A stretch of 64,000 nucleotides of DNA from an uncultured Candidatus Saccharibacteria bacterium (GTDB lineage Bacteria > Patescibacteriota > Minisyncoccia > Phycocordibacterales > UBA1006), in contig CAYXKF010000001.1 of the NCBI GenBank assembly GCA_964464735.1, forward strand, positions 35,690 to 99,689. The letters run 5' to 3'. Below, in pieces: positions 3,578-56,471 of the stretch. The notes below the pieces were generated by a model. The model saw nothing but the letters and a program-made list of their open reading frames with translations, was not told the origin of the DNA and made no database searches. The stretch's first letter is position 1; every line of letters begins with the position of its first letter. The position numbers and the translations under genes are program-made.

Positions 3578-4981
3578 ATGGATATCGACTTATCACAACT
3601 AACCATTGCAAAGGCACACGAGATGCTGGTTGCAAAGCAGATCACGCCCAAGCAATTAATCGAAGCGTACAAGGCCGAGATTGCAAAACGTAATCCAGGG
3701 GTTAATGCATTTTTGGAAGTGTTTGACGATCCGATTCCAACCGAGGTTGATCCCGACAAGCTGCTTTCGTGTATTCCCATCGCATTGAAAGATAATATTT
3801 TAATGCAAGGCCACATTGCAAGCGCTTCATCGAAGATGCTTGAGCATTATGTTGCGCCGTATGATGCAACAGTGGTTAAAAAATTAAAAGAAGCGGGCGC
3901 ATACATTATTGGCCGTACGAACATGGATGAATTTGCGATGGGAAGTTCGACCGAAACGTCGGCATACGGCGTTACCAAAAACCCGATCGACGAATCGCGC
4001 GTTCCCGGCGGATCAAGCGGTGGCGCCGCTGCGGCTTTGGCGATGAATGGAGCATTAGGTGCTTTGGGTACCGACACAGCCGGTTCGGTTCGCCAACCAG
4101 CGGGCTTTTGCGGTGCGGTAGGGTTGTATCCGACCTATGGATCCGTTTCGCGCTATGGCGCAATTGCCATGGGTTCGTCGCTTGACCAGGTTGGTCCTAT
4201 TACCAAGACCGTCGAGGACTGTGAAATACTTTTTAATGCAATTAGTGGTTACGATGCGCACGACGCAAATTCACTTTCGACCGAAACACGCCTTCGTATG
4301 GCAAGCCGCCCGATGGGCAAGCGCATTGGTGTTCCGACCGAGGTGCTTGAAAAAGACGGTATCGACCCCGATGTGCGTGCAAACTTTAACGAATCAATCG
4401 AAAAGATGAAGGCGCTGGGTTACGAAATCGTGCCGATCTCGCTCCCGCATATTTTTTATTCGCTTCCGGCGTACTACATTATTATTCCGGCCGAAGTGTC
4501 ATCAAATCTGGCACGTCTTGACGGGCTTCGCTATGGCACTGCAGCGCCCGAAGGAATGGACCTGTTTAATTCGTATCTTGAAAGCCGTGAACAGGGGTTT
4601 GGTGCCGAAGTAAAACGCCGCATCATTTTAGGGACATATATTTTATCGTCAGGCCACTACGAATCATATTACGCACTTGCGCAGCATATCCGGTCGCTTA
4701 TTACCGACGACTTTGTAAAGGCGTTTGAAAAAGTTGATATCATTGCGACACCGACTTCGCCAACAACCGCATTTAAGATCGGCGAAAAACAAGATCCAGT
4801 ATCAATGTATCTTGCCGATATCTTTACGGTACCTGCCGACTTGGCCGGAATCCCAGCAATTGCGATTCCATCAGGAAAGGATGCAAATGGCCTGCCGTAT
4901 AGCATGCACTTTAATGCACCGCATGGATGCGAACAATATTTGTTTGACGTTGGAAAAGATTTTGAAAGCGTTGTACAATAA
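3578..4981 (+). CDS. gatA: Asp/Glu-tRNA amidotransferase subunit A (amidase signature family)
   Basis: 467 aa with the amidase signature GGSSGGAAAALA and the N-terminal MDIDLSQLTIAKAHEMLVAKQITPKQL typical of GatA. It overlaps the gatC stop by 1 nt. Confidence 0.9.
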   Translation: MDIDLSQLTIAKAHEMLVAKQITPKQLIEAYKAEIAKRNPGVNAFLEVFDDPIPTEVDPDKLLSCIPIALKDNILMQGHIASASSKMLEHYVAPYDATVVKKLKEAGAYIIGRTNMDEFAMGSSTETSAYGVTKNPIDESRVPGGSSGGAAAALAMNGALGALGTDTAGSVRQPAGFCGAVGLYPTYGSVSRYGAIAMGSSLDQVGPITKTVEDCEILFNAISGYDAHDANSLSTETRLRMASRPMGKRIGVPTEVLEKDGIDPDVRANFNESIEKMKALGYEIVPISLPHIFYSLPAYYIIIPAEVSSNLARLDGLRYGTAAPEGMDLFNSYLESREQGFGAEVKRRIILGTYILSSGHYESYYALAQHIRSLITDDFVKAFEKVDIIATPTSPTTAFKIGEKQDPVSMYLADIFTVPADLAGIPAIAIPSGKDANGLPYSMHFNAPHGCEQYLFDVGKDFESVVQ

Positions 4982-5721: not shown

Positions 5722-5792
5722 AGCGGGGTGGAGTAATGGTAGCTCACCGGGCTCATAACCCGGGGGTGCCCGTTCGAATCGGGCCCCCGCAA
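5722..5792 (+). tRNA. tRNA-fMet (initiator, anticodon CAU)
   Basis: Cloverleaf folded by hand. The anticodon loop is CUCAUAA. Three consecutive G:C pairs at the base of the anticodon stem (GGG/CCC), A11:U24, and a mismatched 1:72 pair (A.A) are initiator hallmarks. The T-loop is TTCGAAT. CCA is not encoded. Confidence 0.8.
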
Positions 5793-5845
5793 CACGATCA
5801 TATTTTCTCGTTGATTTTTTGCCCCGCTTAGGGTATCTTTCTCGT

Positions 5846-5922
5846 GTCGGGGTAGCTCAGTTGGTTAGAGCGTAGCACTCATAAAGCTAAGGTCGGCGGT
5901 TCGATCCCGCCCCTCGACACCA
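5846..5922 (+). tRNA. tRNA with CAU anticodon (elongator Met or lysidine-modified Ile2); 3' CCA encoded
   Basis: Hand-folded with acceptor GTCGGGG/CCTCGAC containing one G.U pair, D-arm GCTCAGTTGGTTAGAGC, anticodon loop CTCATAA, T-arm GGCGGTTCGATCCCGCC, and ACCA at the 3' end. Confidence 0.8.
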
Positions 5923-5976
5923 GCGGTGGATTTTTTGCATACGTATGCTAAGATGCGCCGGTACAATTACATAGAT

Positions 5977-6050
5977 GCAGTCGTAGCTCAACTGGTTAGA
6001 GCACCCGCCTGTCACGCGGGAGGTTGCGGGTTCGAGTCCCGTCGACTGCG
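5977..6050 (+). tRNA. tRNA-Asp (anticodon GUC)
   Basis: Acceptor GCAGTCG/CGACTGC, anticodon loop CTGTCAC, T-arm GCGGGTTCGAGTCCCGT, discriminator G. Confidence 0.85.
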
Positions 6051-6057
6051 CAGAAAG

Positions 6058-7619: not shown

Positions 7620-8885
7620 ATGAAGACGACGTGGCAAAACCAACACGTGCCTACTGAGTCAGAATTGATGGGTAATCTTTTGACCGATGTCGTTATTGTG
7701 GGTGCAGGTGTTGCTGGAACCACGACAGCATATTTGCTTGCCCTGGCTGGCGTGCGCGCCATTGTGCTTGAAAAAGGCGAAATAGTGCAAAACTCGACGA
7801 CCGCCTACACGACCGGATTTTTAGTTTCTGATATTGATACCGACTTGGTTGACCTTATAAAAATATTTGGTGCCGAAAATGCAAAAACAATTTGGTCGTC
7901 GCATGCGCATGCAATTGATGCAATCGAACGTATTGTAAAAAAAGAAAAAATAGAATGCGAATTTATGCGCGCCGATGAATACTGGCTTGCAACATCAAAA
8001 AATTCAAGCAAGCAACTGCGCACCGAAGCGGCATTAGCGCGATCGTATGGTTTTAGTATTGCCGAAGTTCCGATTATGAACCCGTTTGGTTCTTTTGACA
8101 GCATACATGTGTTTAAAAATCAGGCAAAGTTTCATGCCATCAAATATTTGGCTGCGTTGCGCGAAGCGGCGATACAAAATGGGGCAGTGTTTTTTGATAA
8201 TACCGAAGTCGTGCAGATAAGCGGTGATGCACTGGTAACTGTTACTACTAGTGATGGTAAAAAAGTAACCGCACGGCATTTGGTTATTGCAACGTACGAA
8301 CCGTTTTATAACCCCTGGCGGCTGTTTGCCAAAAAGGGAATGTACGTTTCGTATGTTTACGAGTTGGCAGTGCCAAAGGCGGTAATTCCCGAAGGGTTGT
8401 ATCAAGATAGTCATAATCCGTATCACTACATGCGCGTCGACCAAATTGGCGGTGACGAGGATCGCATGATCATTGGCGGTGAAGACCGGCGCGAGGAACT
8501 GCCTGCGGCATTAAAAAAGAATTTTGCCGCACTCTTAAGTTATTTTGAAAAGCAATTTCCTGGTATCGCGTATCGCATCGTAACGCAGTGGGATGGACCG
8601 ATACTTGAATCGATCGATGGCATTGCGTTTATTGGATCATATTGCAATAAGCATCCTAATCGACACATTGCGACCGCGTTTTCGGGAAACGGTATGACCT
8701 ATGGCTATTTGGCAGGTGAAATTATTTCTGACGCTATTTTAGGAAACAAAAATCCATATGCAAAAATATATACTCCTATGCGCCGGCATATCACATTTTG
8801 GGGAATCGTTATAAAAACCCGCGATTACGTCGGTGAATTTTTTGGCGCGTATCTTAAAAACATTTTTAAGAAAAAGCATTCGTGA
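7620..8885 (+). CDS. FAD-dependent oxidoreductase (DAO/glycine oxidase-like)
   Basis: The Rossmann dinucleotide motif VVIVGAGVAGTTTAYLLA lies near the N-terminus, and the 421-aa length fits a DAO-type fold. The start could alternatively be the ATG at 7667. Confidence 0.7.
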   Translation: MKTTWQNQHVPTESELMGNLLTDVVIVGAGVAGTTTAYLLALAGVRAIVLEKGEIVQNSTTAYTTGFLVSDIDTDLVDLIKIFGAENAKTIWSSHAHAIDAIERIVKKEKIECEFMRADEYWLATSKNSSKQLRTEAALARSYGFSIAEVPIMNPFGSFDSIHVFKNQAKFHAIKYLAALREAAIQNGAVFFDNTEVVQISGDALVTVTTSDGKKVTARHLVIATYEPFYNPWRLFAKKGMYVSYVYELAVPKAVIPEGLYQDSHNPYHYMRVDQIGGDEDRMIIGGEDRREELPAALKKNFAALLSYFEKQFPGIAYRIVTQWDGPILESIDGIAFIGSYCNKHPNRHIATAFSGNGMTYGYLAGEIISDAILGNKNPYAKIYTPMRRHITFWGIVIKTRDYVGEFFGAYLKNIFKKKHS

Positions 8886-8957
8886 GCCGTTGGCCGGGAT
8901 TGAACCGGCGACCTCGTCCTTACCATGGACGCGCTCTACCAACTGAGCTACAACGGC
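8885..8957 (-). tRNA. tRNA-Thr (anticodon GGU)
   Basis: The reverse complement folds as GCCGTTG-TA-GCTCAGTTGGTAGAGC-G-CGTCC-ATGGTAA-GGACG-AGGTC-GCCGGTTCAATCCCGGC-CAACGGC with discriminator U. The 3' end overlaps the stop codon of the upstream CDS. Confidence 0.85.
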
Positions 8958-9024
8958 AATAACTTCGCCATACTACATTGTTTTATATATTTTTTCAATA
9001 ACCGCTATCTGGTATACTGACACT

Positions 9025-9348
9025 ATGGCAAAGCTGATGAAACTGGTGATTTATAGCCCAATTGATAGCACGCAAAAGATACTTGATGCCCTTGGCGCTG
9101 CTGGTGCGGGGCACATTGGCAACTATTCGCACTGCACATTCACCATGCGCGGAACCGGCCGCTTTAAGCCGCTTGATGGGGCGCAACCGGCAGTTGGCGA
9201 AGTAGGAAAACTTGAAGAAGTAATCGAGGATCGCATCGAGACCGTCTGTGAATTTGATAAGGTAAAAACTGCGATCGAAGCAGTCAGGGCAGTGCATCCC
9301 TACGAAGAGCCGGCAATTGACGTGTATCCTATCGAAGTCGTCGAATAG
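9025..9348 (+). CDS. small PII-like fold protein related to the Nif3/YqfO insert domain (CutA-like), function unknown
   Basis: 107 aa. The N-terminal DALGAAGAGHIGNYSHCTF...GRFKP and C-terminal AVHPYEEPAIDVYPIEVV match the HPYEEP(A)(Y/I)DVY motif of the Nif3-family PII-like domain. Confidence 0.5.
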   Translation: MAKLMKLVIYSPIDSTQKILDALGAAGAGHIGNYSHCTFTMRGTGRFKPLDGAQPAVGEVGKLEEVIEDRIETVCEFDKVKTAIEAVRAVHPYEEPAIDVYPIEVVE

Positions 9349-9386
9349 TTTGAACTTTTTTGGTTTTCTGGTATCGTGAAGCTCGT

Positions 9387-9459
9387 GCCAGTGTAGCTCA
9401 GTTGGTAGAGCACAGCTTTCGTAAAGCTGGGGTCGTCGGTTCAATCCCGACCACTGGCT
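9387..9459 (+). tRNA. tRNA-Thr (anticodon CGU)
   Basis: GCCAGTG-TA-GCTCAGTTGGTAGAGC-A-CAGCT-TTCGTAA-AGCTG-GGGTC-GTCGGTTCAATCCCGAC-CACTGGC with discriminator U. It is near-identical in backbone to the tRNA-Thr(GGU) 430 nt upstream on the other strand. Confidence 0.85.
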
Positions 9460-9492
9460 CAGCCAGCTTACTGCACAACATCAGTCTTATTT

Positions 9493-18949: not shown

Positions 18950-18958
18950 GTGTACTTG

Positions 18959-19029
18959 TTGCCGGACTAGGACTCGAACCTAGATACCAAGGACCAAAAC
19001 CTTGTGTCCTACCATTAGACGATCCGGCA
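18959..19029 (-). tRNA. tRNA-Gln (anticodon UUG)
   Basis: The reverse complement folds as TGCCGGA-TC-GTCT-AATGGTA-GGAC-A-CAAGG-TTTTGGT-CCTTG-GTAT-CTAGG-TTCGAGT-CCTAG-TCCGGCA with discriminator A. U8 and the D-stem fit. Confidence 0.8.
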
Positions 19030-35299: not shown

Positions 35300-36592
35300 A
35301 TGTGGTATAATGCTTCTTACATGAATTTTGCCCAGGCCAAGACTATTACTGGCTATAACCAATTTTTTAAATGCATCATTATTGCGATCGCTTTTTTTAC
35401 TTGTTTCTTTTCGATCGCCTTGGTGTCGCATGCCGAAGGGGGAATTGTTTTTACTGGTGTCACCTTAAAACCCGATACCGCCGCGGCAAACGGAACGTAT
35501 ATTTTGTCAGGCAATCTTAAGCTGCTTAGTGGCAGTACAAATGGCACAAGCGCGCCCGTAGGCTTAACGCTTGTCGACTTGTCGACTGGCGGTACACAGA
35601 CGTCAGCGCTTGGTACATATACGGTTGGTGCCGCGGCTCCTTTTTCGGTCAAAGGGCTTACGGGTACTTCGTATCGCTTTAATCATTCAATAAATAACCA
35701 GACTGTTGCAGCGTTTACTATTATTTCGTACACCGGTCCTGCGGCAATGGCGCTTACCCCAACATATTCTGACGTAAAGCTCGAGGCCGATTCTGTCAAT
35801 CAGGGTAAATATATTTTGTCAGGAAAAATGAATCTAGCCGGCGGCACCGGTACTTTTCAGTTTACCTCGATCGAAACAAAGGGAACAGGTGAGACTGCTT
35901 TTGCGTCAAAAGCACAAACTGGATCACCAAGCTTTGGTGCTACAGCTGCGTTCAGTGTAAATAATTTAACTAAAACTTCGTACGAATGGTATCCAAAAGT
36001 TACCTATAATAATCAGGTGTATACTGTGGGAACTCCACAGACAATATCGGTTGGGGGAACGAACCAAGGTACCAATCCGCCAAACCAAAACCAGCAAAAT
36101 TCCCAAAATAATAATCAAAGTAATCCGACAACGCAAAATACCACACAAACGACTGTGGCCGGTGGCAACGGACTTTTTGATGAATTTAAAAATGGCCTTG
36201 TTCACTGCGGCCGAAAAGTTGCCGACCCGGCGCGGGGTATTACGACAAAGCCGTGCACATTTGACGACTTAATTATTTTGGCAAGCCGCATTATCCGCTT
36301 TGCGATGTATCTTATTGTAGTTGCAGCAGCGATCGTCGTTATATGGATCGGTTGGATTTACTTATCGGCAGGTGGCAATACCGAAAAGGTCGCCAAGGCA
36401 AAACATGCGGCAACCAGTTGGGTTATTGGCGTCGTGTTGGTCATGTGCGCTTGGCTAATTGTCAGTTTCGTATTGCGAAGTTTCTTAAGCAAAGAGTATC
36501 TTCAAAAGCATCCGAACGCATTATTGCTTGAAAAAGTGGATGACGCATCGACACAAAATAAATCATTACAAGACATTATTACCGGACAATAA
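35300..36592 (+). CDS. secreted beta-rich protein fused to a C-terminal VirB2/TrbC-like pilin hairpin
   Basis: Signal peptide, a ~300-aa Thr/Gly/Ser-rich repeat region, a Q/N-rich linker, then FDDLIILASRIIRFAMYLIVVAAAIVVIWIGWIYLSAGGNTEKVAKAKHAATSWVIGVVLVMCAWLIVSFVL. That tail is two TM helices separated by a short charged loop. The start may instead be the ATG at 35321. Confidence 0.6.
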   Translation: MWYNASYMNFAQAKTITGYNQFFKCIIIAIAFFTCFFSIALVSHAEGGIVFTGVTLKPDTAAANGTYILSGNLKLLSGSTNGTSAPVGLTLVDLSTGGTQTSALGTYTVGAAAPFSVKGLTGTSYRFNHSINNQTVAAFTIISYTGPAAMALTPTYSDVKLEADSVNQGKYILSGKMNLAGGTGTFQFTSIETKGTGETAFASKAQTGSPSFGATAAFSVNNLTKTSYEWYPKVTYNNQVYTVGTPQTISVGGTNQGTNPPNQNQQNSQNNNQSNPTTQNTTQTTVAGGNGLFDEFKNGLVHCGRKVADPARGITTKPCTFDDLIILASRIIRFAMYLIVVAAAIVVIWIGWIYLSAGGNTEKVAKAKHAATSWVIGVVLVMCAWLIVSFVLRSFLSKEYLQKHPNALLLEKVDDASTQNKSLQDIITGQ

Positions 36593-41704: not shown

Positions 41705-41776
41705 GGCGTGGTGGCGAAGTGGTAACGCTTCGGTCTGCAAAACCGACATGCGCGGGTTCAATTCCCGCCCACGCCT
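41705..41776 (+). tRNA. tRNA-Cys (anticodon GCA)
   Basis: GGCGTGG-TG-GCGAAGTGGTAACGC-T-TCGGT-CTGCAAA-ACCGA-CATG-CGCGGGTTCAATTCCCGC-CCACGCC with discriminator U. Confidence 0.85.
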
Positions 41777-41824
41777 CAAGGTTGATTTTACGCAGAAATG
41801 CAGTAAGATAGCTTTCGTGTTTAA

Positions 41825-41905
41825 TGCCGGGGTGGTGAAATGGCAGACACACCTGCCTTAGGAGCAGGCGCCGCAAGGCATGGAGGTTCAAGTCCTCTCC
41901 CCGGC
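41825..41905 (+). tRNA. tRNA-Leu (anticodon UAG), class II with long variable arm
   Basis: GCCGGGG-TG-GTGAAATGGCAGACAC-A-CCTGC-CTTAGGA-GCAGG, a long variable arm CGCCGCAAGGCAT, then GGAGGTTCAAGTCCTCT-CCCCGGC with discriminator A. Confidence 0.85.
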
Positions 41906-41931
41906 ACATGTGGAATACACGTATTCCAACA

Positions 41932-42004
41932 TCCGCCCGTAGCTCAGTTGGTAGAGCAGTCGCCTCTTAAGCGAACGGTCCTTGGTTCGAATCCAAGCGG
42001 GCGG
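41932..42004 (+). tRNA. tRNA-Lys (anticodon CUU)
   Basis: CCGCCCG-TA-GCTCAGTTGGTAGAGC-A-GTCGC-CTCTTAA-GCGAA-CGGTC-CTTGGTTCGAATCCAAG-CGGGCGG with discriminator A. There is one mismatch at the top of the anticodon stem. Confidence 0.8.
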
Positions 42005-42015
42005 ACAGACAGTCA

Positions 42016-42098
42016 TGCCCGAGTGGCGGAATGGTTTACGCAGAGGACTTAAAATCCTTCCCCTTCAACGGGTTGTGGGTTCGACTCCCACCTCGGGC
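42016..42098 (+). tRNA. tRNA-Leu (anticodon UAA), class II with long variable arm
   Basis: GCCCGAG-TG-GCGGAATGGTTTACGC-A-GAGGA-CTTAAAA-TCCTT, long variable arm CCCCTTCAACGGGTT, then GTGGGTTCGACTCCCAC-CTCGGGC with discriminator A. It is followed by a T-run. Confidence 0.85.
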
Positions 42099-42099
42099 A

Positions 42100-42423
42100 C
42101 TAGTTTTTTTCTTCGGCTATAAGTCGATAAATAACATCGCGCTTCTTGGCGCCGTCATCAATATGCCATGCGTATGTCTTAGGAAGCATGCCGCGCGTAT
42201 TCTTTTTTAAGTATGTCTTGATATCGACAATATGCTTTTGCAAAAAGCGCAGCGCATCTTTTTCGTACTTTTCGGGTAATACGCTTACACCGACGGTTGC
42301 GTGCGAAATATCCGGCGAAAGTTCAAGGCGTGCGACGGTGATAAGTGAATCACGGTTGGCATTTTTAGTAACCCATTGGGCAATCTGTTTTTGCAATTCT
42401 TTTTCAAGCGCTTCTTTTTTCAT
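42100..42423 (-). CDS. rbfA: ribosome-binding factor A
   Basis: 107 aa. SLITVARLELSPDISHATVGVSVL matches the RbfA core. It sits immediately downstream of infB on the same strand. Confidence 0.8.
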   Translation of the reverse strand: MKKEALEKELQKQIAQWVTKNANRDSLITVARLELSPDISHATVGVSVLPEKYEKDALRFLQKHIVDIKTYLKKNTRGMLPKTYAWHIDDGAKKRDVIYRLIAEEKN

Positions 42424-49108: not shown

Positions 49109-49660
49109 ATGGACCAAAGTGTAGTTAATTACCTAAATGAATGTCAGCAAGGTGCCCGATGTAAAACAGAATTGAAGGCCATTGGCCCTTTTTATTTTCT
49201 TGAGATGCATTTCCCCGAGCAGTGGGATATTCCACGCGAACATTACGATAATCTTATTAAGCGTGATGGTTCAGAGAAATCCGGATATATATTGTTTACG
49301 GATGAGATGAAAGGCGATCGTGATCCAAAGCCAAAAACATTGCGACTTTGTGGAGTAGATCAAGACGCGCCATTTAAAACATTGCGTGAGGCTGAATCTA
49401 TTTTGCAGACATATGGCATGTATCCACCTACAATAAAGGAGATGTCATATGCGTATCATAATTTACTCGAAGGAACTCGACATCCTTATATTGCGACCTT
49501 TAATAAGGTTATCGAGAAATTACCGATAGGAAGTCCACGCAATGGCACTATCATATTGCCCTCATCGTATCGACCAGCTCAAAAAAACTTTGTGGTTGAC
49601 GTGGGGGTACAACCATTCGATAAAAACATTACTCTTATTGCAGCAGTAACCGTTCATTAA
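49109..49660 (+). CDS. hypothetical protein
   Basis: 183-aa ORF with no recognizable motif, followed by a terminator. Confidence 0.4.
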   Translation: MDQSVVNYLNECQQGARCKTELKAIGPFYFLEMHFPEQWDIPREHYDNLIKRDGSEKSGYILFTDEMKGDRDPKPKTLRLCGVDQDAPFKTLREAESILQTYGMYPPTIKEMSYAYHNLLEGTRHPYIATFNKVIEKLPIGSPRNGTIILPSSYRPAQKNFVVDVGVQPFDKNITLIAAVTVH

Positions 49661-49675
49661 CGCACAGTTTAAAAA

Positions 49676-49710
49676 ATAAAGCCCCGAGCAAAATGCCGGG
49701 GCTTTATCTA
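49676..49710. terminator. bidirectional Rho-independent terminator (serves + strand CDS and minus-strand tmRNA)
   Basis: aaaaaataaa-GCCCCG-agcaaaatgc-CGGGGC-tttatct. The reverse complement also gives a hairpin plus a T-run. Confidence 0.6.
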
Positions 49711-49713
49711 TTG

Positions 49714-50104
49714 TGGAGATGGAGGGTATCGAGCCCTCGTACATGCATGATAACCATGCAAATCTACGTGCGTGTTTTGTTTAGGTGCCTTTCGGCATTC
49801 CGCTGTATCTTGTCATTAAACAAACAAACAAGGCACAGTATGCTGCACTGATACGATGTTGCTTCGTGCAGAATAAGCAAAAAAGTACTTAGAAATTATC
49901 AAACACGGCCTGATATGTCTAAGTGCATATCAGCGTGCTCCAAGCGCTTAGGCTCGGGCGAAAGAAGCGAATCCAAAAAATGGAGACGCTACCGCAGTTT
50001 TAGATTTTGCACTAAAATGCTGTACGCGTATTTTGACGCGCGCGACGTACGCGAGCGGCACGCATTGCATGATTATGATCATCCATGGCATTCAATACAT
50101 CCCC
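49714..50104 (-). ncRNA. ssrA: candidate tmRNA (ssrA), divergent
   Basis: It lies 88 nt downstream of smpB on the same strand. The 5' GGGGATG pairs with the 3' CATCTCC to form a 7-bp acceptor stem with G3.U70 (the Ala identity element), discriminator A, and a T-arm GAGGG-CTCGATA-CCCTC. 5' and 3' proximal segments can pair to form P2 (CATGCA/TGCATG). The internal reading frame is UAGU-GCA AAA UCU AAA ACU GCG GUA GCG UCU CCA UUU UUU GGA UUC GCU UCU UUC GCC CGA GCC UAA, giving the tag AKSKTAVASPFFGFASFARA. The total length is 391 nt. The ORF-track ORF at 49915..50208 on the opposite strand is probably spurious. Confidence 0.6.
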
Positions 50105-50191
50105 AAAATCTTTGTAGCGGAAATTTTTTAAGAACCCAGCGGTTCTCAATTACCATCCGGCAAGCCGGGGTGTTTTCCGTTAACTGTGTTA

Positions 50192-50641
50192 TCAAAGAAT
50201 TTCTTTGATTGAACGCTTGTCGGCCTTTTTCTTAAGGCTTTGGCGCTTATCAAAAAGCTTTTTCTTTTTTCCTAATCCGATGCGCAGTCGCATCCGATTA
50301 CGGTTTAAATATACCATTAAAGGTATAAGTGTCAACGATCCGCTTTTACGCTCGACTAACAATTTTTCAATTTCGCCTTTGTTTAGCAAGATTTTTCGCT
50401 TACGGTACGGCTGGTGCTTACTGGCCTTATTGTTTGGCTGATAAGGCGGAATAAACGATTCGGCGAGCCATGCTTCGCCCTGTTTAGAAATATGAATATG
50501 TGAACCCTCAAGCGACCCATGGCTGGCGCGCAGTGATTTTACCTCTGACCCGGTCAGCAAAAGCCCCGCTTCAACAGTGTCCTTGACATCATAAAACCGT
50601 TCGGCATTTTTGTTTTTTACCAATGGCTGCATGGCAAGCAT
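50192..50641 (-). CDS. smpB: SsrA-binding protein
   Basis: 149 aa. ERFYDVKDTVEAGLLLTGSEVKSLR and the C-terminal basic tail are typical of SmpB. Confidence 0.9.
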   Translation of the reverse strand: MLAMQPLVKNKNAERFYDVKDTVEAGLLLTGSEVKSLRASHGSLEGSHIHISKQGEAWLAESFIPPYQPNNKASKHQPYRKRKILLNKGEIEKLLVERKSGSLTLIPLMVYLNRNRMRLRIGLGKKKKLFDKRQSLKKKADKRSIKEIL

Positions 50642-50718
50642 TGTAGCACGACATCTGCATCGCTCAAAAAACGGTTTTTTATTGCTTTTGCATTAAATAT
50701 CCCTATAATGCAGGTGAT

Positions 50719-52599
50719 ATGAAGCAAAAGGCTCCAAACCCTAAAAAAATATTGCGCCAATTTATGGCACATATTATATCGCTGGTGATTTTGATCATCT
50801 GCGTCGGGTTTTTATATGCGGGCCTAAGCTATAGCAAAAAAAAGCAGGCGACCGAAGCAATCAGCGTTTCGCAAGTGGCGCAACTCGTAAAAGAAGGGCA
50901 AGTAAAAGCCATGACCCTTCGTGGCGAAAAAATTGAACTAGCATTGCAAGACGGCACCAAAAAGACTGCTAAAAAAGAAAACGACGCATCGCTGTCAGAA
51001 ACATTGGTTGCGTACGGTGTAACGCCAACGCAATTACAGGTGGTTGATTTTGAAATTCAAAACGATCGTGGGTTTGGATATATCTTTTTAAATATCTTGC
51101 CCATCCTGGCGCCTATTTTATTTTTTGTGATTTTGATTTGGTTTTTGTCGGGCCAAATGAAAGGTGGTGGCATGAAGGCCTTTAGTTTTGGGCAGTCTCG
51201 CGCACGCGTAACTGACCCCGATAAGCAAAACGTTACCTTTGATGACGTTGCCGGAAACGAAGTTGCAAAAATCGAACTTGCCGAAGTCGTCGACTTTTTA
51301 AAGAATCCAAAAAAATTCTTAGACATTGGTGCCACAATTCCTAAGGGCGTATTGTTAATGGGTGCACCCGGAACGGGCAAGACATTACTTGCGCGTGCGG
51401 TTGCAGGCGAAGCAAAGGTGCCTTTTTTTCACTTGTCGGGATCCGAATTTGTCGAAATGTTTGTTGGCGTGGGTGCGTCGCGTGTACGTGATTTGTTTGA
51501 CCAAGCAAAAGCAAATGCCCCGGCAATTATCTTTATCGACGAAATTGATGCCGTAGGGCGTCATCGTGGTGTTGGTATTGGCGGCGGAAACGATGAGCGC
51601 GAGCAAACCTTAAATCAAATTTTAGTCGAGATGGATGGCTTTGAACCGACCGAAAAAATTATCGTGATTGCTGCAACAAACCGAAGCGACGTACTTGACC
51701 CGGCATTGCTTCGCCCAGGGCGATTTGACCGTCGCGTCATTTTAGATTTGCCTGACCGCAAAGAACGCTTGGCGATTTTGCAGGTGCATGCACGCAAAAA
51801 GCAGTTAGGCGAAGATATTAACCTTGAAGTTATTGCCGAACGCACGCCAGGATTTTCGGGTGCCGACTTGCAATCGCTAATGAATGAGGCTGCAATATTT
51901 GCCGCACGCGAAAACCGTAAAAAAATAGCACAATATGATATTATTCGTTCAATCGAAAAAGTGATGATCGGCCCTGAACGCAAATCGCATTTGCATAGCG
52001 AAAAAGAACGACGTATTGTTGCATACCACGAAGCAGGCCATGCCATTTTGGCGTCATTGCTTGAACATGCCGATCCGGTGCACAAAGTATCAATTGTTGC
52101 GCGTGGATACACGGGAGGGTTTACGATGAAGCTTCCAATCGAGGAACGCAAATTGCAATCGAAAAATGAATTTTTGGATGATATTGTCGTTTCGATGGGT
52201 GGCTATGTTGCCGAAAAAGCAGTGTTTGGCGATATTACAACCGGACCTTCAAACGACTTACAGGTTGCATCGCGCATGGCATACAGTATGGTGACCCGTT
52301 GGGGTATGTCTGACAAAATTGGGCCAATTGCGCTTGAGGCCGCCGACGGCAGTTCACTGTCCGAACATGGTTCGGCATTTAGTAACCACACAGGTACGCT
52401 TATCGCCGAAGAAGTTTCAAAAATCATTCATGAATCTTTGGCACGCGCACAGCAGCTAGTGCAAGATAATCGTGCAGTTTTGGATGCTGTTGCTGATACT
52501 TTGCTTGAGAAAGAAACTATCGAACAAGACGAATACAACGCCCTTATTGAACGCTTTGGCATTATTGCTAAAAAGCGCAGTGAAGAAACAAAAACTTAG
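50719..52599 (+). CDS. ftsH: ATP-dependent zinc metalloprotease FtsH
   Basis: Two N-terminal TM helices, AAA+ Walker [12 protein letters not shown], and the Zn-binding HEAGHAI. 626 aa. Confidence 0.95.
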
Positions 52600-56391: not shown

Positions 56392-56398
56392 TTTGCTG

Positions 56399-56471
56399 TG
56401 GGTGTGCATGGACTCGAACCATGGACCACCGAGGTATAAGCTCGGCGCTCTACCAACTGAGCTACACACCC
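56399..56471 (-). tRNA. tRNA-Ile with UAU anticodon (AUA decoder), unusual
   Basis: The reverse complement folds as GGGTGTG-TA-GCTCAGTTGGTAGAGC-G-CCGAG-CTTATAC-CTCGG-TGGTC-CATGGTTCGAGTCCATG-CACACCC with discriminator A. The anticodon loop CUUAUAC gives anticodon UAU. Confidence 0.75.

Follow-up and report, generated by a model that had tools for sequence, protein, structure and literature searches.

Does the segment that follows smpB in this DNA encode a working transfer-messenger RNA (tmRNA), and, if so, which of its parts depart from the familiar form? The window, by which we mean the whole 64,000-nt stretch analyzed here (contig CAYXKF010000001.1, uncultured Candidatus Saccharibacteria bacterium), is cellular DNA, encoding GatA, CTP synthase, ribosomal protein S1, GyrA, IF-2, SHMT, RecG, HisRS, and FtsH. 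An earlier note, made from the sequence without database searches, had proposed that a minus-strand segment at 50104..49714 is a divergent tmRNA gene (ssrA) hidden beneath an annotated open reading frame (ORF). The segment has the sequence and structure match of a tmRNA, helices that covary between relatives, a conserved tag frame, and an intact SmpB partner. We put the probability at roughly 95% that it is ssrA for a functional one-piece tmRNA of a Saccharibacteria-like bacterium (candidate phyla radiation, CPR; Patescibacteria), working with the SmpB encoded upstream. The architecture is standard and the function looks ordinary; the clade-specific parts appear to be a reduced tRNA-like elbow and a CPR-type tag.

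Identity of the gene and its relatives

The Rfam tmRNA model, RF00023, matches the minus strand of the window at 49711..50104 with 79.8 bits (E 2.5e-29), spanning model positions 1-374 of 374 without truncation, and it is the best model for this segment within clan CL00001. The covariance-model check suggested with the original proposal is therefore positive (gathering score, 47 bits); the match is far beyond chance, and its full length bears out a tmRNA beside smpB on the minus strand. The mature RNA (49714..50104, minus strand) is 391 nt including the discriminator A and, as first described, begins with GGGGAUG and ends with CAUCUCC followed by that A. At its 3' end the gene reads A-CAA, without an encoded CCA.

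The upstream gene, smpB (50192..50641, minus strand), matches Pfam PF01668 with 139 bits and exceeds the cut-offs of two NCBIfam equivalogs (NF003843, 145.4 bits vs. 130; TIGR00086, 138.3 vs. 119.1). Its product matches solved SmpB structures (E 2e-29) and aligns over residues 6-146 with Aquifex SmpB 1p6v, keeping the conserved DKRQ tail motif. The two genes are on the same strand and adjacent, as had been claimed, though the gap between them is 87 nt and not 88, the smpB stop ending at 50192.

When SmpB was searched against a collection of 5.8 billion proteins, just three sequences proved to be close relatives, at 84, 72, and 71% identity, before a drop to 45%. The 84% relative lies on a metagenome-assembled genome (MAG) contig titled "uncultured Candidatus Saccharibacteria bacterium" (L001, the same contig as L007); there a tmRNA follows smpB by 14 nt, scores 100.8 bits on RF00023, and is missed by default ARAGORN. 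The other two relatives are on short contigs, L005 and L006, which cover the tmRNA from its 5' end for 203 nt and 71 nt, respectively. The window, L001, L005, and L006 make up what we call the window clade, with L001 as its single full-length ortholog. A scan of a genome collection with an SmpB alignment kept 80 loci, among which the only close relative was L007 and from which the contig of the window itself was absent. An exact-match scan across metagenomes for the 5' signature of the clade, GGGGATGTATTGANNGCCAT, gave 18 loci, none with a tmRNA by Rfam, ARAGORN, or blastn; these loci are chance matches, and the window clade is not represented in the scanned metagenome collection. For the next-nearest SmpBs (P0005, P0014, and P0020; 45-47% identity), either no tmRNA was present in the DNA retrieved or the contig end was reached, and these loci are uninformative on where the reduction of the tRNA-like domain (TLD) arose. 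Literature searches on CPR or Saccharibacteria tmRNA tags found nothing specific.

Secondary structure and covariation

The standard tmRNA fold was written out on the four clade sequences; the window row is gap-free, so alignment columns equal tmRNA positions. In this fold 95.4% of 262 cells are paired, a percentage inflated by the derivation of the fold from the same sequences, and 20 pairs are changed on both sides. The meaningful figure is the count of double changes against slid controls: partners slid by 1-3 columns give at most 3 double-change pairs, and the observed values are not attained in any of 500 shuffles.

The acceptor stem P1 (positions 1-7/384-390) joins GGGGAUG (50098..50104, minus strand), which supplies the G3 of the G3.U70 alanine identity pair, to CAUCUCC (49715..49721). 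All seven pairs form in both the window and L001, with G.U at position 3 and the discriminator A, and the stem is identical in L001; the 7-bp stem with G3.U70 in the original description thus holds. Directly before the 3' acceptor strand, again as described, stands the T arm, GAGGG-CUCGAUA-CCCUC (49715..49738, minus strand, including the acceptor CAUCUCC), with a 5-bp stem (positions 367-371/379-383) that is invariant in L001 and a 7-nt loop. Loss of the acceptor and T-arm pairing in relatives had been named as evidence that would count against a tmRNA; L001, the sole ortholog with a 3' half, keeps both P1 and the T-arm stem unchanged.

The long P2 helix has 26 pairs in three segments, P2a (18-27/354-363), P2b (31-40/344-353), and P2c (42-47/334-339), its 5' strand at 50058..50087 pairing with the 3' strand at 49742..49771, both on the minus strand. 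The window forms 24 of these pairs and L001 forms 25, and the pairing of CAUGCA (34-39) with UGCAUG (345-350), which had been picked out from the sequence, falls inside the 10-bp P2b helix. Covariation support for P2 is weak: two pairs have one-sided G-C/G-U or U-G/U-A changes (in P2b, one-sided G-C/G-U changes only), and none is changed on both sides.

The remaining structure, all on the minus strand, consists of four pseudoknots (PK1-PK4) and the P5 hairpin. PK1 (50022..50057) is formed by P3 (48-54/62-68) crossing P4 (55-60/78-83) and has four compensatory double changes across the four sequences, for example, CGC/GCG, AAU/AUU, and UUG/CAA. P5 (49940..49957; positions 148-153/160-165), which holds the stop codon in its loop and overlaps the last three tag codons, has six pairs, 100% paired in three sequences, with three double changes. 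PK2 (49887..49939) has five double changes in its hairpin (166-179/188-203) and two in the crossing helix from loop to downstream strand (181-187/212-218). PK3 (49843..49880; 225-230/241-246 crossing 234-239/257-262) has one, from A-U to G-C. In PK4 (49774..49838; 267-277/292-302 crossing 280-287/323-331) the helix 267-277/292-302 has five double changes, and the GUUUGUUU/AAAC(A)AAAC helix is invariant. PK4 additionally contains an extra GNRA-capped hairpin (49786..49797; positions 308-319), with the loop GAAA in the window and GUAA in L001. Between the window and its relatives, PK2-PK4 together account for 13 double-change pairs.

Tag reading frame

The predicted tag frame (50010..49948, minus strand) opens at a resume GCA (50010..50008) and runs for 20 codons, AKSKTAVASPFFGFASFARA, to a UAA stop (49950..49948). 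The same frame reads AKSKTAVASPFSGFASYALA in L001 and AKTKTAVASPYFGFATLSVA in L005; in all three lineages it consists of 20 codons plus UAA and ends in Ala, with six synonymous third-position differences among them. The Rfam alignment places GCA on the consensus resume codon with high posterior probability, and the spacer between PK1 and this codon, read from the sequence, is 11 nt. Conservation, synonymous changes, and the Rfam alignment together uphold the 20-residue tag with GCA resume that had been proposed. The accompanying claim of an E. coli-like UAGU context fared less evenly: UAGU does directly abut the resume codon, but the match to E. coli (UAGUC) is offset by one base. The penultimate tag residue varies between R, L, and V, and this variation is accompanied by compensating changes on the other strand of P5.

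That the tag ends in ARA and not LAA, as was pointed out from the start, is plain in the sequence. Among 26 tmRNAs beside smpB in other genomes, 21 tags end in xAA; named CPR tags end in YATA (twice) and YARG, and the tag of an unclassified MAG in TALA. The window-clade ending is [F/Y/L]-[A/S]-x-A instead of xLAA, and the window tag shares the N-terminal motif AK.K.AV.SP[YF]FG with other CPR tags. Judged from these sequences, ARA is a CPR-type ending, [F/Y/L]-[A/S]-x-[A/G], typical of the lineage and not a one-off. Such an ending might alter protease recognition, as had been suggested; GCA is the inferred resume codon.

Evidence against the assignment and alternative explanations

Several observations weigh against a functional tmRNA. 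Default ARAGORN reported 11 tRNAs and 0 tmRNA in the window, and the window gene has the lowest RF00023 score among the tmRNAs measured (79.8 bits, vs. 100.8 for L001, 93-112 for three named CPR tmRNAs, and 156-206 for 12 ordinary bacteria). Neither GG nor UCGAC, which the other tmRNAs compared possess, is present in the D-loop analogue, the T-loop deviates at C54 in the window and at U58 in L001, and P2a contains a G.G mismatch. To these must be added the inflated pairing percentage given above and the invariance of P1, P2c, P11, and the T arm, which are uninformative on covariation, either way, because there is only one full-length ortholog.

The two elbow deviations can be described more closely. 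The shortened D-loop analogue, UAUUGAAUGC (50088..50097, minus strand), occupies 10 nt between P1 and P2 and is conserved as UAUUGAWWGC in the window, L001, L005, and L006. Other CPR and ordinary tmRNAs have ~13-14 nt in this interval, containing GG and UCGAC, and four other tmRNAs aligned read GG[CU][CU]U[CA]GAC at the site. The lack of the UUCGAC box, remarked on in the earlier note, is confirmed, and the absence is conserved in 4/4 clade members; the GG...UUCGAC box is a consensus-sequence trait, typical but not among the structural requirements of the family model, and the match is still well above threshold. The T-loop reads CUCGAUA in the window, with C at position 54 where U is usual, and UUCGUUA in L001, with U58. 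In each, a different member of the usual U54-A58 pair is altered, which suggests that constraint is relaxed in this loop. The tRNAs in the same window retain canonical GG and UUCGA elbows in Rfam alignments.

These same features account for the detection failure. The ARAGORN check that had been proposed is negative at default settings, for the window as for the relatives' loci (L001-L007, no tmRNA called), and positive at -ps90, where a "tmRNAp" with the same ends and the same frame is called. In silico, no single repair of ssrA brings back default detection; it returns when repair of the T-loop is combined with one of two others, that of the D-loop analogue or that of the junction (UAC to GAC). 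The default failure is therefore attributable to the diverged T-loop in combination with the D-loop analogue or the UAC junction.

The lowest score, the degenerate D-loop analogue and T-loop, and the default ARAGORN miss would also fit a decaying, non-functional ssrA pseudogene in a reduced genome, retaining only enough similarity to match the model; tmRNA loss is reported in some reduced genomes, for example, Carsonella (PMC4131195). We consider decay very improbable. With 20 compensatory pair changes, each helix has been preserved from lineage to lineage, the tag frame has retained its length, its stop, and a pattern of synonymous substitution, smpB is intact and above equivalog cut-offs, and the unusual 5' TLD sequence is conserved over SmpB identities of 71-100%, which indicates constraint and not decay. 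Less credible still is the plus-strand ORF itself as a real protein gene to which the tmRNA-like features would be secondary. An ATG-initiated open frame of 97 codons is indeed present at 49915..50208, but it overlaps the 3' end of smpB, lies antisense to the 79.8-bit RNA match, and has no Pfam or NCBIfam match. Its antisense counterpart in L001 shares only MLYAYFDAR, a stretch imposed by the conserved tmRNA sequence, before a frame shift carries it into another frame, and substitutions between relatives track RNA pairing and not the frame of this ORF. Without a family match and without conservation as a protein in L001, the 97-residue ORF is evidently the artefact that the earlier note took it to be.

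A tmRNA carrying a different tag is a somewhat larger possibility than either of these, though an unlikely one: translation might resume in another frame, or in this one but upstream (VQHFSAKSK...) or downstream, at GCG (AVASPFF...). With -ps90, ARAGORN begins the tag five codons earlier, at a GUA within the same open frame. In addition, UAG in the resume context is one base nearer to GCA than in E. coli, the bases upstream of GCA are invariant in the relatives and do not discriminate between start codons, and in two other CPR loci (L011 and L010) an in-frame upstream Ala codon is likewise available as an alternative start. Yet the GUA chosen by ARAGORN sits in the 3' strand of PK1 helix P4 (positions 78-83), where a start is considered unlikely, whereas GCA stands on the consensus resume codon of the Rfam alignment with high posterior probability and follows PK1 by 11 nt, the spacing of E. 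coli. The +1 frame is not conserved, meeting a stop after 6 codons in the window and after 18 in L001, and the synonymous changes mark the GCA frame. We therefore retain the GCA-initiated tag of a functional tmRNA in what follows.

Comparison with known systems

With E. coli SsrA the window tmRNA shares the 7-bp acceptor stem, G3.U70, the discriminator A, a T arm of 5 bp and 7 nt, a long P2, PK1, an 11-nt spacer, the GCA resume codon, three further pseudoknots, an smpB neighbor, a tag ending in Ala, and a stop codon in a hairpin loop. It differs in its D-loop analogue, ~4 nt shorter and without GG and UCGAC, in its T-loop (CUCGAUA), in a tag of 20 codons ending in FARA where that of E. coli has 10 codons ending in ALAA, in an unencoded CCA, and in the extra GNRA hairpin of PK4; its RF00023 score is about half that of typical bacteria.

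Resemblance is closer to the CPR tmRNAs found beside smpB in two Saccharibacteria-labeled loci (L011 and L026) and one from Zambryskibacteria (L010), although the SmpBs are only 41-44% identical. All have long tags (20-24 residues) with an N-terminal half of the form AK.K.AV.SP[YF]FG and an aromatic-rich C-terminal half in which a variable residue precedes one final Ala or Gly (YATA, YARG), together with low Rfam scores (93-112 bits) and a small extra hairpin in PK4; L011 and L026 also have ftsH beside smpB. In contrast to the window clade, these three retain a GGYYUMGAC box and UUCRAUU T-loops and are detectable by ARAGORN.

Mycoplasma-type tmRNA tags, which were reportedly found by Gur and Sauer in 2008 to be read by Lon rather than ClpXP, are likewise long, contain hydrophobic and aromatic residues, and end in x-F/Y-A-x-A instead of LAA; a Mollicutes-like locus in our set (L055) has a tag ending in YAFA. 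There is no sequence homology between these tags and that of the window. FtsH, the product of a neighboring gene, is the only candidate protease seen in the 64-kb window.

The tmRNA-SmpB systems of Carsonella, Hodgkinia, and hemoplasmas, as treated in PMC4131195, resemble that of the window in belonging to reduced genomes and in having an atypical, hard-to-detect tmRNA found beside smpB; searching next to smpB is described there as the fallback for an undetected tmRNA. Unlike the Carsonella case, for which that paper gives tags ending in Lys and an SmpB without central loop and tail, the window SmpB aligns over residues 6-146 with the Aquifex protein and keeps the DKRQ tail, all four pseudoknots are present, and the tag end is non-charged.

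Transcription signals

A candidate ssrA promoter lies inside the smpB coding sequence at 50308..50335 (minus strand): TTGACA, a 16-nt spacer, and a TG-extended TATATT, sigma-70-like and matching the consensus at 11/12 positions. The hexamers are identical in L001 (3466-3493), L005 (773-800), and L006, with spacers that vary. All five codons beneath them are the same in the four genes, compared with 24/81 invariant degenerate amino-acid columns gene-wide; of codons with at least fourfold degeneracy, 4/4 are unchanged inside the hexamers and 2/39 outside. Since synonymous sites under the hexamers are conserved, unlike those in the rest of smpB, these data suggest nucleotide-level selection on the hexamers and a putative ssrA promoter inside smpB, which would give a leader of ~197 nt in the window.

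A second promoter-like sequence, TTGAGC-16-TACAAT at 50640-50667 (minus strand), extends to the initial ATG of the smpB ORF as listed, and two of the three relatives (P0002 and P0004) start at the position of the fourth-codon Met (MQPLV...). For both reasons the true smpB start may be at 50632, with a very short leader or none.

After ssrA comes an intrinsic terminator (49671..49709, minus strand; -23 kcal/mol, z -5.4; inverted repeat I1), followed by the U tract UUUAUUUUUU; L001 likewise has a terminator after its tmRNA. The hairpin is common to the convergent plus-strand gene upstream. The earlier description of a bidirectional terminator holds well for the minus strand and less well for the plus strand, where termination is plausible but weaker (-21.3 kcal/mol, with a poorer U tract). 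That convergent gene, an ORF of 183 residues (49109-49660, plus strand), has no Pfam or NCBIfam match. Of the loci fetched, L006 alone yielded a homolog (37% identity); at the equivalent position L001 has a gene that did not match.

Proposed function and implications

The steps that we propose follow the established trans-translation pathway. A precursor would be transcribed with smpB or from the conserved promoter-like site within it; RNase P would cut at G1, and the 3' end would be trimmed and given its CCA, as with almost every tRNA of this genome. AlaRS would charge the molecule through G3.U70 and the discriminator A, SmpB would bind the TLD, and the complex would enter the empty A site of a stalled ribosome. 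Translation would then resume at GCA (50010..50008), 11 nt after PK1, adding Ala plus AKSKTAVASPFFGFASFARA to the nascent chain and terminating at the UAA that the loop of P5 presents, and the hydrophobic, aromatic-rich, Ala-ending tag would mark the product for proteolysis. Processing and charging are here predicted from sequence.

A more far-reaching view, which we regard as doubtful, is that this subclade has remodeled the TLD elbow (a 10-nt D-loop analogue without GG and a T-loop drifting at 54/58, beside canonical tRNAs in the same genome) and uses a long aromatic tag with an unconstrained penultimate residue (R/L/V), so that the fit of tmRNA, SmpB, and ribosome and the route of degradation (possibly the syntenic FtsH or Lon, and not ClpXP) would differ from those of E. 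coli, with ssrA driven by the promoter in smpB.

The essential ribosome-rescue RNA of this lineage is invisible to ARAGORN, on which many MAG pipelines rely, and statements of completeness or of a "missing tmRNA" for such CPR genomes would be wrong. False ORFs are consequently called over the gene, as with the 97-residue ORF in the window and a spurious extension of FtsH in L001. There, the FtsH call (677 residues) starts inside the tmRNA gene, and homology to the window FtsH begins 51 codons after the called start, the first 51 residues having no counterpart; this N-terminal segment (3922-4077) is a false extension, made because the tmRNA was unannotated. The locus also offers a covariation-backed example of drift in the TLD and tag ending of a tmRNA in episymbiotic, reduced-genome bacteria, along with two testable leads, the promoter inside smpB and the conserved ftsH-smpB-ssrA linkage. 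Neither lead changes the known picture of trans-translation; the main value lies in correcting the annotation.

Genomic neighborhood and other observations

ftsH adjoins smpB-ssrA in the window (50719-52599, plus strand), L001 (4078-5949), L005 (1-390), L011 (501-2303), and L026 (3-1754), that is, in five Saccharibacteria-type lineages with SmpB identities down to 41%. FtsH is among the proteases known in E. coli to degrade ssrA-tagged proteins, and for this reason the ftsH-smpB-ssrA linkage may be functional. Hudson et al. (PMC4131195) give the most frequent smpB neighbors as ssrA, ratA/rnfH, and RNase R, and ftsH is not named in the abstract.

The module of smpB, ssrA, and terminator is inverted between relatives (window 49664-50690 vs. 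L001 3092-4075): module and ftsH are divergent in the window, L005, L011, and L026, whereas L001 and L006 have the module turned round and co-oriented with ftsH. Conservation of the ftsH promoter region extends across the inversion breakpoint. A search for inverted repeats flanking the module found only the terminator hairpin, and no further copy of the ssrA 3' end, which would have pointed to island integration, was found in the window, the T arm and 3' end being unique.

The tRNA genes of the window (5722-6051, 8884-9460, 18958-19029, 41705-42100, and 56398-56471) resemble ssrA in their 3' ends: 10/11 lack an encoded CCA. With ssrA also lacking it, the organism must depend on a CCA-adding enzyme. 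In most bacteria, AUA is decoded by a CAU tRNA that carries lysidine. Here, both the window (56398-56471, minus strand) and the Saccharibacteria-labeled MAG locus L011 (350-425) have a tRNA-Ile whose anticodon is UAU, and the lineage may thus decode AUA in another way. Elsewhere in the window, a protein of 430 residues (35300-36592, plus strand) has a type IV secretion system pilin domain (PF18895) at its C terminus.

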